NCBI GenBank assembly: GCA_017557325.1
Contig: JAFZAI010000083.1
Location: 1 to 61,077, forward strand
Reading direction: 5' to 3'
DNA: 61,077 nt
Source of the DNA: Bacteroidales bacterium
GTDB lineage: Bacteria; Bacteroidota; Bacteroidia; Bacteroidales; UBA932
The stretch's first letter is position 1, and each line of letters starts with the position of its first letter. Of this stretch, positions 48,224-51,355 are shown one piece after another. Under the pieces are notes generated by a model, which worked only from the letters and a program-made list of their open reading frames with translations, was not told where the DNA came from and did not search any database. Both the position numbers and the translations under genes were made by a program.

Positions 48224-48356
48224 ACTTTGGCAAGATAGTTTTTTTTTATATAACCCGCAAACTAAATCGATATACTGATTACTCACCGTACAGAACATCC
48301 GGTCGGTGGTGTGTGAGAATTGTGGATTCCACCATTTTTTTCTATCTTTGCAGGCT

Positions 48357-49466
48357 ATGACAAGGGAAGAGGATTTCACCAGGCTTGAGATCAACCTGAA
48401 GGGCTGTACCGACAACTACCGGTATTTCCGTTCGCTGCTGCGGCCGCGGACTAAGATGCTCGTGCTGGTGAAGGCCAATGCGTATGGCCACGGAGCCGTG
48501 GAATTCGCCTCCCTGATGCAGGCAGCCGGAGCGGATTATCTGGCCGTCGCCTCCCCGCTGGAAGGAATTGAACTCCGCAAGGCCGGTATTTCACTGCCGA
48601 TTCTCGTACTGACAGCCCGCACGGATTCGTTCGACGAGACCATCCGCAACCGTCTCGAGCCCGGCATTCCCAATATCTTCACCCTCCAGGCCCTGCTGGA
48701 AGAACTGAAGCACCGCGGTCTCCGGGATTACCCGATCCATATCAAACTCGACACCGGCATGCACCGCCTCGGCTTCACGACCTCGGAACTTCCCGCCTTG
48801 CAGGAGGCCCTTCGTCAGGAGACTAGCGTGCGCGTCCGCTCAGTGTATTCGCATCTCTGCGTCGCAGAGGATCCTGCGGAGGATCCCTACACGCTGGGGC
48901 AAATCGAAATGTTCCAGGCCAATGCCGGCGCGCTGACGGATTCGCTCGGCTACAAGCCGATGTGGCACATCCTCAACTCGGCCGGCATCGAACGGTTCCC
49001 GCAGTATCAGTTCGATATGGTGCGGCTCGGGATCGGCATCTACGGGATCAGCGCCCTGCCGGGCGTGCATCTCGCCCCGGTCGCTTCGCTCAAATGCAAG
49101 ATCCTCCAGATCAAGCATCTGGAGCCCGGAGATGGCACCATCGGCTACGGCCGCTACGGTCACATCGCCCCGGGCGGGACGACCATCGCCACCATTCCCG
49201 TCGGGTATGCCGACGGCATCGACCGCCACCTGGGCCGCGGCGCCGCCTCATTCTCCCTAAACGGCCACCGCGTGCCTCCGATCGGCAACATCTGTATGGA
49301 TATGTGTATGCTGGACATCACGGGCGTCGATGCGCAGGTCGGCGATACGGTCACCATCTTCGGTGACGACCCCACCGCCTCCGAACTCGCCGGCATCCTC
49401 GGCACCATTCCCTACGAAATCCTCACCTCCGTCCCGCGCCGCATCGACAGGGTGATTGTACGGTAG
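48357..49466 (+). CDS. alr: Alanine racemase (stand-alone)
   Basis: VKANAYGHG, KLDTGMHRLG, VRLGIG, GYADG, ICMDM and TIPYE motifs. Confidence 0.96.
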   Translation: MTREEDFTRLEINLKGCTDNYRYFRSLLRPRTKMLVLVKANAYGHGAVEFASLMQAAGADYLAVASPLEGIELRKAGISLPILVLTARTDSFDETIRNRLEPGIPNIFTLQALLEELKHRGLRDYPIHIKLDTGMHRLGFTTSELPALQEALRQETSVRVRSVYSHLCVAEDPAEDPYTLGQIEMFQANAGALTDSLGYKPMWHILNSAGIERFPQYQFDMVRLGIGIYGISALPGVHLAPVASLKCKILQIKHLEPGDGTIGYGRYGHIAPGGTTIATIPVGYADGIDRHLGRGAASFSLNGHRVPPIGNICMDMCMLDITGVDAQVGDTVTIFGDDPTASELAGILGTIPYEILTSVPRRIDRVIVR

Positions 49467-49487
49467 ATGCATAAAATCCGCTTTTTC

Positions 49488-49518
49488 TTTGTTCTTTCGA
49501 AAAATCTCGCTATTTTTG
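49488..49518 (+). promoter_or_regulatory. Bacteroidetes -33/-7 promoter of the small-ORF cassette
   Basis: TTTG (49488-49491) and TATTTTTG (49511-49518). Confidence 0.7.
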
Positions 49519-49522
49519 CATC

Positions 49523-49685
49523 AGATTATTTGAATCAGCAAGTGGAGATAAGCGCCCACCAATGCTGGAACACCAAACAGAGCACCGATTCTTTTTATAG
49601 ATTCAGGTGCTCTGTGTTTTAAAAACGGGCAGCGGTACTGTCACAAGCCGCCCCAATGCTCACAATCGCTTTTATGTAATCAACT
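49523..49685 (+). ncRNA. Candidate structured 5' leader (about 160 nt)
   Basis: 5' 15-mer complementary to the start region; 10-bp hairpin ACAGAGCACC/GGTGCTCTGT followed by GTTTT; additional short hairpins. Confidence 0.5.
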
Positions 49686-49838
49686 ATGATTCAAATAATC
49701 TATTTTCAAACCAGCATTGTAGAGCGCCTTTGCATAGTATGCGAGAATGAGCTCTCTAAAGCCGTCTTTGTCAGAGGTCATTTTAAGATGGTCAATGGCA
49801 AAAAGGTATATGTGAAACCTCATTACCGTAAGAGGTAG
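49686..49838 (+). CDS. 50-aa basic small protein (not in ORF track)
   Basis: MIQIIYFQTSIVERLCIVCENELSKAVFVRGHFKMVNGKKVYVKPHYRKR; own promoter and terminator. Confidence 0.7.
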   Translation: MIQIIYFQTSIVERLCIVCENELSKAVFVRGHFKMVNGKKVYVKPHYRKR

Positions 49839-49864
49839 TTAGGGTCTCATCCGAGTTGTCCGTT

Positions 49865-49896
49865 CTGCAGTCACCTAGGGGTGGCTGCAGTTTTTT
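49865..49896 (+). terminator. Intrinsic terminator after the small ORF
   Basis: CTGCAGTCACC-TAGG-GGTGGCTGCAG followed by T6. Confidence 0.85.
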
Positions 49897-51355
49897 ACAA
49901 ATCGACATACCGCCGGGTGACGATGCCTTTTTTGTCTAGATAAATGAGATAGGGAAGGCTGGAGAGATCGAAGTCGTCCAGCAGGTCGGGGGATGCCTTG
50001 GTGACGAGGACTTTGAGTTTGCGCGGGCCCTGAGAGAGAAGGCGGTCGATGCCCGGGGCGGCGTCGGCGCAGGAGGCACAGGAGTCGGATGCAAATACGA
50101 CGACACCGGGCTCGCCGCGGAGTTTCCTTAGACGCAAGCCCTTCACCGCCTTGTCGGGGCGGGGAACAAACGATGCCTCGCCGCCGGAAGCCGATTTCGC
50201 GCGCCGCCCCGGCCGCCGGAGCGTCCCGTCCACCGCCACATCGGGCGCAGGAGATCCTACCGGGCACTTCGCAAGCAGACCCATCATCATATCGGCAAGC
50301 GTAAGCACCTGCAGAGAATCCGTCGCTGACCAGACGTCCCGGCCGTAGATATAATGGTCCATAAAAGGAGTCAACACCTCCCGGAACGCCTCGCTCCGGT
50401 GGAAAGAAAGGTAATACAGCAGATCTCCCATCGTGTGGGCGTACGCGGCCGGATTCCCCTCCCCGAGGGTCCGCTGCTCGATGTAGGCAGCCGTCTCCAG
50501 GACATCGGCGCCATTGGAGAATATGCCGTCCAGCATCGCCTCCGACTCCTTGGAGCCATACACGTACGCCTGCACCTCCTCGTGCGGCGCCAGTGCCTCA
50601 ACCAGCGCCGTCAGCGCCTTGGTGTCGAGCCGTCGGCCCACGATGGTAAGGTCCGGGGCGATTAGAAAGAGCGCCGGGGTCTTGATGACGCCGTACGCTT
50701 CGTGGAAATCGGACTGCATCCCCGGGTCCCAGAGATGCTGTACGCCCTCCAGCGTAAGCCCCGTCGCCCGATACCGCGCCCAGGAGGGCTCCCGGATGCC
50801 GACATACACCGCCACGACATCCAGCGGAATCGGCGCTTCCGGCAGATAGCGCTTGAGATATTCCGTCTCCAGCGCGCACGGGGCGCAGGTCGTATCGTAA
50901 AACAGCAGCACCGTATAATTCTCCCTCGGCTGGTCGAAAACACTGACGGTCTGCTGATTGACATCGCGCAGTGTCAGCACCGGCGCCTTCATTCCGATGA
51001 GCGACCGTCCGTTAAAGCGGACGTAGGACTGTGCCGTTGTGAGATCGGAGGGCGACACTTCCACCTTGCCGGCCATCATCCATTCCCGGGCGACATACAC
51101 CGCCACGGTCTCATCCCCCATCACGGAAGAGTTGCTGTAGTGCGTGAAGACATATTGCGCGATATGCGCGCGAATCGCCGGATCCGTCGCTGAGGAAATG
51201 AGGAAGTCCGCCTCGGAGCACTTATCCGCCGTCGAGGCCGCTTCTATTGTCTTGAAATAGGCGTCCATCTTCCCGTCCAATGCCGAGTAGTCCTGGGCCG
51301 CCGCCCCGAAAAGGGACAGCAGCAGGGCCGTCAGCACCGGAAGGAAGCGTCTCAT
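49895..51355 (-). CDS. Exported protein with two thioredoxin-like (redoxin) domains, DUF5106-like
   Basis: Signal peptide; CAPC and CASC motifs; cis-Pro-type loops KTPAL and SLPYL. Confidence 0.78.
   Translation of the reverse strand: MRRFLPVLTALLLSLFGAAAQDYSALDGKMDAYFKTIEAASTADKCSEADFLISSATDPAIRAHIAQYVFTHYSNSSVMGDETVAVYVAREWMMAGKVEVSPSDLTTAQSYVRFNGRSLIGMKAPVLTLRDVNQQTVSVFDQPRENYTVLLFYDTTCAPCALETEYLKRYLPEAPIPLDVVAVYVGIREPSWARYRATGLTLEGVQHLWDPGMQSDFHEAYGVIKTPALFLIAPDLTIVGRRLDTKALTALVEALAPHEEVQAYVYGSKESEAMLDGIFSNGADVLETAAYIEQRTLGEGNPAAYAHTMGDLLYYLSFHRSEAFREVLTPFMDHYIYGRDVWSATDSLQVLTLADMMMGLLAKCPVGSPAPDVAVDGTLRRPGRRAKSASGGEASFVPRPDKAVKGLRLRKLRGEPGVVVFASDSCASCADAAPGIDRLLSQGPRKLKVLVTKASPDLLDDFDLSSLPYLIYLDKKGIVTRRYVDL

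Follow-up and report, generated by a model that had tools for sequence, protein, structure and literature searches.

Organization of the locus

The window analysed here is positions 1 to 61,077 (61,077 nucleotides) of contig JAFZAI010000083.1 from a Bacteroidales bacterium (GTDB lineage UBA932, assembly GCA_017557325.1). Between its convergent alr and redoxin-fold genes lies a unit of about 410 bases, made of a promoter, a leader, an open reading frame (ORF) and a terminator, which fills the 428 bp that separate the two stop codons. The features of the region are as follows.

48306..49466, + strand: alanine racemase gene (alr; Pfam PF01168 and PF00842), flank, outside the unit
49488..49491 and 49511..49518, + strand: Bacteroidota-type promoter, TTTG and TATTTTTG, read from the sequence; predicted activity
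49523..49620, + strand: predicted 5' RNA of about 100 nt, with a free 5' seed, a small hairpin and a terminator-like hairpin with a T-run; proposed same-strand antitoxin
49523..49537, + strand: seed 1, the 5' strand of helix P1, pairing with the start-codon region
49552..49568, + strand: seed 2, the 5' strand of helix P2, pairing with codons 9-14; P2 crosses P1
49577..49620, + strand: leader hairpin and T-run, from a repeat scan; stem 49577-49586/49606-49615, 10 bp
49624..49633, + strand: element B, pairing with the 3' end at 49855-49864; rejoining point of a relative's RNA contig
49633..49660, + strand: 5' strand of helix P3, which in the 5'-trimmed RNA would enclose the start codon in a loop
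49686..49838, + strand: ORF of 50 codons for a 50-residue basic protein of an unnamed family
49687..49701, + strand: target of seed 1, the TG of the ATG and codons 2-5
49711..49743, + strand: target common to seed 2 (49711-49727) and P3 (49713-49743)
49764..49829, + strand: coding stretch of the basic beta-hairpin, residues 27-48, from an AlphaFold2 model
49855..49864, + strand: element B', the partner of B, abutting the terminator stem
49865..49896, + strand: intrinsic terminator, with a T-run that shares bases with the stop codon of the redoxin-fold gene
49895..51355, - strand: AhpC/TSA-redoxin protein gene (Pfam PF00578), flank, outside the unit

Bacteroidota promoters follow a -33/-7 consensus, and the promoter claimed for the unit in a preliminary description of the locus is indeed present, with TTTG at 49488 and TATTTTTG at 49511. 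Its -7 box is aligned across relatives, and the transcription start at 49523 is predicted from its position. The -7/-33 motif as such is confirmed in the accessible text of PMC7366714. The 15-nt inverted repeat that was said to join the 5' end of the transcript to the start codon (49523-49537/49687-49701) is perfect; none of 500 dinucleotide shuffles of 49488-49896 reached 15 bp, the best long-range perfect inverted repeat among them being 12 bp. The second pairing (49560-49568/49711-49719) is exact as well, crosses the first helix, and reaches 17 bp at 82% when lengthened to 49552-49568/49711-49727. The fold of 49520-49900 has a z-score of -5.5, and its minimum-energy structure includes the 15-bp helix. 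The ORF is, as described, AT-richer than its neighbours (39% GC versus 61 to 62%, and 47% versus 77% for both neighbours at third codon positions), and a simple terminator scan listed the strong 3' terminator (49865-49890). For the leader hairpin, which had been called terminator-like, the 10-bp stem was recovered; the T-run is interrupted in this copy, and the same scan did not list it.

Distribution of the family

Gut and rumen Bacteroidales carry an uncatalogued family of such units, which is real and conserved. Relatives of the ORF were found in 39 of 301 genomes of the genus, at one to three copies each, and in 2 of 401 genomes sampled evenly over the order, the genome of the window being included in both counts. 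A profile search gave 136 cluster representatives, ten of which were looked up and are all without a name, and a metagenome scan gave 78 loci. There is also a distant subfamily, with 37 loci mostly from uncultured Bacteroidales, two of them in Candidatus Cryptobacteroides; its leader motif occurs in 23 of the 301 genomes of the window's genus. Searches of plasmids and phages returned one weak partial match each, and three queries against viral contigs returned none; the only two loci on viral contigs both belong to the distant subfamily.

The spread of the unit is patchy, and its neighbours are many unrelated chromosomal genes (91 of 105 neighbour ORFs were scanned). None of 29 orthologous redoxin loci has a unit within 1.5 kb. 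Type I restriction-modification genes flank 17 of 49 core copies, 11 of which form one clade, with the label of L028 resting on a neighbour that has the length and spacing of a scanned methylase; fimbrillin-like or DUF6562 genes flank 7 of 49. Each of the two associations needs at least three changes on the tree.

One clade (L014, L025, L027, L028, L030, L033, L035, L045, L113, L134 and L136) sits between type I methylase and specificity genes; which specificity gene stands on the other side differs between copies, the pattern of a shuffled hsdS locus. Single copies lie beside Cas1, AbiEii, Schlafen-group helicase and Mrr genes (L034:1994-2794, L073:327-998, L085:1241-2230 and L054:204-1037). 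At the locus of the window itself, an 87-nt contig of run X3 joins the end of alr directly to the redoxin stop (window 49459-49897), possibly a cassette-free allele; with a depth of 2 and 30 letters on one side, it is too thin to be used as evidence.

Pairings conserved between copies

The loci contained 149 matches, of which 47 were without a parsed promoter and start and 10 were duplicates; the 92 kept reduced to 62 non-redundant copies, and dropping distant, broken and contig-cut rows left a core set of 49. The distant subfamily set started from 45 loci, of which 38 could be parsed; 32 of these were non-redundant, and 31 entered the analysis. Each 5' segment was then paired with its own target, with the targets of all other copies and with shuffled sequences.

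Seed 1 prefers its own start-codon region. The P1 energy in the core set is -20.3 kcal/mol with the own partner, -9.5 with other copies and -8.6 with shuffles, the own partner beating the non-cognate mean in 49 of 49 copies and being strictly the best in 34. P2, between about +20 to +55 of the leader and the early codons, gives -26.6, -18.8 and -11.5 kcal/mol, with 49 of 49 copies above the non-cognate mean and 16 strictly best. The sequence of the 5'-end/start-codon helix thus changes between copies while the pairing is kept. We also found a helix that was absent from the preliminary description and is new here, between leader element B and the 3' end (own -14.8, others -11.5, shuffled -8.0 kcal/mol; own better in 46 of 49). 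The rest of the leader can form P3 with the coding stretch that is also targeted by seed 2 (own better in 43 of 49, strictly best never); having overlapping targets in 49711-49743, seed 2 pairing and P3 are mutually exclusive. Kinship among copies inflates all these own-partner counts; control segment pairs showed no own-partner preference (23 to 26 of 49), and the preference for the own target is not produced by relatedness alone. Two further candidate pairings were rejected for lack of such a preference: that of the leader AGCCGC box with the 3' arm of the terminator (28 of 49, despite 9 bp in the window's copy), and that of element E with the leader's first hairpin (25 and 28 of 49).

Column-wise covariation on a plain alignment (37 rows, three of them decayed copies) gave 62.6% paired cells, above both controls overall (36 to 50% when slid). 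It is weak for P1 and P2, both of which shift in register. At the base of the leader stem, 7 of 7 base pairs have two-sided changes and 94.7% of cells are paired. A U-tract follows the leader hairpin in 48 of 49 core copies and in all 31 of the distant ones, and an RYGTA motif is conserved after the hairpin in both subfamilies.

Among the distant copies, own-partner preference was again found for P1 (28 of 31) and B:B' (28 of 31). The core-type P2 is absent from this subfamily (10 of 21), and the second seed differs, the loop of the leader hairpin pairing with the stop-codon region (22 of 31), with swaps such as CCCTAA/TTAGGG, CCACTAA/TTAGTGG and GCTCTAA/TTAGAGC. In 15 of 31 distant copies B:B' is the only stem before the final U-run and is followed directly by it, so that termination would use B:B' as its stem. 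Copies with such a candidate intrinsic terminator of long range, one arm being a leader element about 200 nt upstream, are L171, L173-L175, L177, L179-L181, L184, L185, L187, L188, L200, L202, L015 and L055.

The RNA lock is well supported by covariation. Together with the covariation of both helices in relatives, the absence of a named match for the RNA or the protein in Rfam, Pfam, NCBIfam and PADLOC upholds the description of the unit as a translation-locked mRNA outside the named systems. The specificity of seed 1 mostly extends to paralogues within one genome: over nine co-resident pairs, self energies range from -15 to -26, and cross energies are weaker than -12 in 15 of 18 directions. 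Seed 2 is less copy-specific than seed 1 between such paralogues.

Timing of the lock

Opening bases -12 to +13 costs a mean of 11.9 kcal/mol at the point where transcription has reached 18 bases into the coding region, and more than 5 kcal/mol in 46 of 49 RNAs; the mean is 6.2 at +55, 4.7 at full length and 3.1 kcal/mol after 5' trimming, all being minimum energies that exclude pseudoknots, with one copy (L062) carrying a wrong promoter. Given the fall from 11.9 in the nascent to 4.7 in the full-length RNA, P1 would be mainly a lock during transcription. As the two helices cross and both are long, P1 and P2 more likely form in turn than together. Once P3 and B:B' pair, the ATG is predicted to be left in a loop. 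The type I mRNAs of tisB, dinQ and zorO are 5'-processed; here, 15 of 49 full-length RNAs open the start region for less than 3 kcal/mol untrimmed, so that processing may not be needed.

Taken alone, the 5' piece folds like a small RNA (z-score -4.7), with 13 unpaired 5' bases, then a predicted hairpin exposing part of seed 2, then the terminator-like hairpin. As modelled, it has the build of a free antisense RNA, a point that the preliminary description had missed.

The protein

Selection on the ORF is uneven: pN/pS is 0.19 in the 20 C-terminal codons and 0.71 in codons 2-9, which are nearly free of protein selection and are the RNA target. The AlphaFold2 model contains a confident beta-hairpin at residues 27-48 (pLDDT 87 to 92 for residues 31-50) and an N-terminus without resolved structure. 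Net charge in the core set is +6 to +12, and no protein among the 49 has a 19-residue window above 1.6, the maximal 19-residue hydropathy being 1.4. The product is thus a basic beta-hairpin under selection and does not have the character of a membrane peptide.

Fold searches with the model gave no structural match (best Z 2.5, no E below 0.001), and weak HU/IHF rows among their results are not evidence. The best E against PDB sequences was 0.048, and a word-based protein search found nothing. Pfam, NCBIfam, PADLOC and Rfam returned no significant family match for the RNA or the protein, the Rfam matches being chance ones, and Pfam zinc-finger matches to a CxxC-like stretch fell below cut-off. 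The undescribed PHROG family phrog_21154 matched 8 of 31 members, the protein of the window not being among them, and the Atlas, queried with homologue P0008, returned unnamed clusters only.

The basic hairpin motif is also present as the C-terminal part of longer proteins that appear to be exported, as well as in repeats and in a protein of 642 aa (P0064, P0090, P0093, P0098, P0114, P0119, P0122 and P0131 carry this portable, unnamed module). As it ends longer, apparently exported proteins (P0064, P0090, P0098), the motif is not by itself the mark of a toxin.

Antisense search and RNA data

No minus-strand -7 box was found in this copy, and no conserved one in 41 copies; such boxes are scattered over 14 of the 41, six of them at -112 to -121. 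With the space between the stop codons filled by the unit, there is no room beside it for a separate gene.

The RNA data are assembled contigs, not reads, and two thin contigs from one rumen run (X1) make up the evidence; run X2 contributes nothing on the unit. A 160-nt contig covers 49566-49726, with a single gap as its sole difference, and spans the leader hairpin; among 20 pieces on 1.8 kb it is the only near-identical one, and it may come from DNA in the library. The other contig, from a relative, runs through the end of the ORF to 49850, continues for 50 further letters and then reads 49624-49666 (a single contig, depth 5.4, 12 differences in 81 letters). This order, 3' end and then 49624, was found in the DNA of 0 of 149 matches by a motif that recognises 56 of the 92 leaders. 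Such a back-joint would be expected from an RNA whose 5' end lies at B, after ligation or template switching.

Decay and ORF-less copies

A leader-motif search of the 301 genomes of the window's genus gave 45 matches, read by eye: the ORF is intact and parsed in 28, and in 7 it is a remnant or was left unparsed; 2 are cut by a contig end and 3 are without a promoter. In the remaining 5, four of which have a promoter, the ORF is cleanly deleted between leader and B', two sharing one junction. These copies (L208, at G015:C72:6335-6362, L224, L221, L223 and L229) keep the leader, B:B' and the terminator, as orphan small-RNA genes; an intact copy stands 612 bp away from L208. At seed 1, orphan leaders show no clear targeting of intact copies in the same genome (L224 with L227, -7.8); at seed 2 the same pair gives -39.6.

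Among 33 irregular copies read by eye, six events removed the 5' seeds (L006, L017, L037, L047, L087 and L123/L124), and in every one of them the normal start is gone as well or a stop has appeared. Other irregular copies keep the leader and lose the frame or the start (L049, the L023 group, L122). Loss of the seeds together with the start is what a toxic gene would leave, which is an indirect argument from sequence; it may also follow simply from adjacency.

Proposed mechanism and alternatives

We put at about even chances the reading of the unit as an addiction module of the toxin-antitoxin (TA) type, in which the first ~100 nt of the transcript that encodes the toxin would themselves be the antitoxin; toxin and trans-acting antitoxin are both predictions. 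Many transcripts would end at the leader hairpin, as short RNAs in which both seeds are exposed. When the polymerase reads through, seed 1 would cover the emerging start codon, and seed 2 would then cover codons 9-14. Loss of the 5' piece near 49624, or refolding, would produce a compact message of about 275 nt with paired ends and the ATG in a loop, and the short RNA could rebind this trimmed message in trans, copy-specifically. Should transcription stop, upon DNA loss or phage shut-off, the short RNA would decay first; the basic, nucleic-acid-binding peptide would then be made and would stall or kill the cell, so that the unit and the DNA linked to it (for instance type I restriction loci) would be kept.

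Several observations argue for such a module: compensatory changes keep the two seed helices and the leader-to-3'-end helix, a U-tract hairpin stands between the seeds and the gene body, and the basic C-terminus is under protein selection. We also count in its favour the copy-specific seed 1, the ORF-less copies, the pattern of seed loss, the patchy spread, the restriction-locus neighbours and the X1 back-joint. Against it we count the protein, with no membrane helix and no structural match, the interrupted T-run of this copy's leader, and the RNA contig that reads through the leader hairpin. Moreover, pairing in cis would account equally well for every covarying helix.

This last point is the strength of a non-toxic, autoregulated gene, whose cis-only helices would act as a folding timer and whose basic hairpin peptide would bind its own RNA or the leader hairpin and so set termination or translation; it would spread as a near-neutral passenger, or as the supplier of a small nucleic-acid-binding protein. 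The charge of the protein and its confident beta-hairpin suit this explanation, as does the presence of the motif at the end of longer, apparently exported proteins, and it would correspond to the autoregulated RNA-binding peptide suggested in the preliminary description. We nevertheless think it rather unlikely, since it leaves unexplained the copy-specificity of seed 1, the placement of the seeds in a piece closed by its own U-tract hairpin, and likewise the persistence of ORF-less copies that have a promoter, and the patchy spread. A classical type I pair would combine cis locks like those of aapA/IsoA or hok/Sok with a separate antisense RNA, made from a promoter that our motif missed. The nascent lock and the 5'-3' long-range helix match aapA3 as described in the accessible part of PMC6733600, and some copies have an A-rich 5' flank of the leader hairpin that could terminate transcription of the other strand. 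Such a pair is improbable, given the missing and elsewhere scattered minus-strand boxes, the lack of space and the missing membrane peptide, and the type I toxin first considered for this locus loses ground accordingly.

Two other explanations have very little probability. One is a ligand-sensing riboswitch or general attenuator with the small gene downstream by chance, also proposed at the outset, to which the terminator-like leader hairpin and the RYGTA motif shared by both subfamilies could point. However, in the 301 genomes of the window's genus the leader motifs precede the ORF family, its remnants or directly the terminator, and none of the 45 matches that has a promoter shows another gene in that place; pairing to the ORF and the 3' end accounts for the conserved leader letters, and Rfam has no match. 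The other, similarly far-fetched, is a selfish RNA whose body, once trimmed and paired at its ends, would close into a circle, acquire a coat of the basic peptide that it encodes and from time to time be reverse-copied into DNA. B:B' holds the ends together, one 3'-to-49624 joint exists in an RNA run, and the insertion sites are many and unrelated; yet intact copies have an upstream promoter, which copying from RNA would lose, no ribozyme family matches, and the joint may be a library artefact. A likeness of leader words to twister-sister ribozymes was not borne out by Rfam.

Comparison with known systems

The closest parallel to the proposed module is c4/icd, from the immI region of phages P1 and P7. 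The available portions of PMC5320573 and PMC8198154 describe an antisense RNA with two loops that is processed from the same transcript and silences the small division inhibitor gene icd. In both, an antisense RNA would come from the front of the transcript on which it acts, which for the unit is a proposal; there are two seeds, of which one gives specificity, and the target is the start of a small downstream gene, which inhibits growth in the phage system and would do so here. Two 5' seeds complementary to downstream targets at the small gene are found in core and distant copies. The unit differs in having no antirepressor or phage context, in ending its 5' piece with a terminator-like hairpin, whereas c4 is a three-stem RNase P substrate, and in being a stand-alone unit with its own terminator and seeds of 15 to 25 nt. 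The Rfam C4 model did not match 48500-50800 at E up to 10, nor 18 loci at gathering score.

Type I mRNAs (aapA/IsoA, hok/Sok, timP) resemble the unit in size, with about 375 nt and a product of 47 to 51 aa, in the replacement of a transient start-site lock by long-range pairing, and in several non-cross-reacting copies per chromosome, according to excerpts of PMC6733600, PMC8594479 and PMC13000454; the transient co-transcriptional lock and the 5'-3' long-distance pairing are those of aapA3 (PMC6733600, in part). A sequestered initiation region together with a 5'-3' long-distance helix is found here too, as predicted pairings with covariation. In contrast to these systems, neither an antisense RNA nor a separate antitoxin gene was found, the product is a basic beta-hairpin without a membrane helix, and the lock covers the ATG itself, not the Shine-Dalgarno box. 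No catalogued type I antitoxin RNA or toxin family matched in Rfam, Pfam, NCBIfam or PADLOC. With no C4 match or phage context, no antisense gene found and no membrane peptide, the unit is a member of neither c4/icd nor type I.

Type III systems (ToxIN, CptIN, TenpIN, AbiQ) place a promoter, a short RNA, a terminator and a toxin gene in one transcript, the same order of elements as here. Their RNA binds a nuclease, whereas the RNA of this unit pairs with the message; no tandem repeat array was found before the terminator-like leader hairpin, and the protein did not match any endoribonuclease toxin of known family. Within the same order of bacteria, Bacteroides thetaiotaomicron has seven putative type I pairs, all cis-antisense, and the paralogous FopS small RNAs, as far as the sections available from PMC7366714 and PMC11697453 go. 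These are multi-copy small RNA loci that block start codons; unlike the unit, FopS loci lack a small ORF, and their targets are susC messages.

No description of the family was found in the literature, with the large small-protein catalogues covered in part, and its motif was not found in the searched supplements of PMC7366714, PMC8040213 (all files except 7 and 8) and PMC12821620. The text of T1TAdb has no occurrence of 'Bacteroid' and no Bacteroidota type I family. Existing searches rely on an antisense gene and a hydrophobic peptide and would therefore miss such a unit. For a stand-alone, chromosomal, same-strand antitoxin derived from a leader, we found no example in the literature; the principle is known from phage immunity (c4). 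The stronger claim, namely a new TA architecture with one transcript, a two-seed antisense RNA released by early termination, a nucleic-acid-attacking basic beta-hairpin of about 50 residues and, in one subfamily, a ~200-nt leader-3' terminator stem, is tentative and falls somewhat short of even chances.

The family supplies more than 80 natural lock-and-key variants with which action in cis and in trans could be told apart, besides a candidate for a long-range intrinsic terminator and a new small basic protein, and the unit is possibly a compact orthogonal switch for gut Bacteroidales. In L123-L126, a cassette of the distant subfamily, in opposite orientation, replaces the 5' half of a core cassette. 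Further subfamilies (L050, L054, L056 and L043) have VRxHW/YWR hairpins, different leaders and weaker seed 1 pairing.
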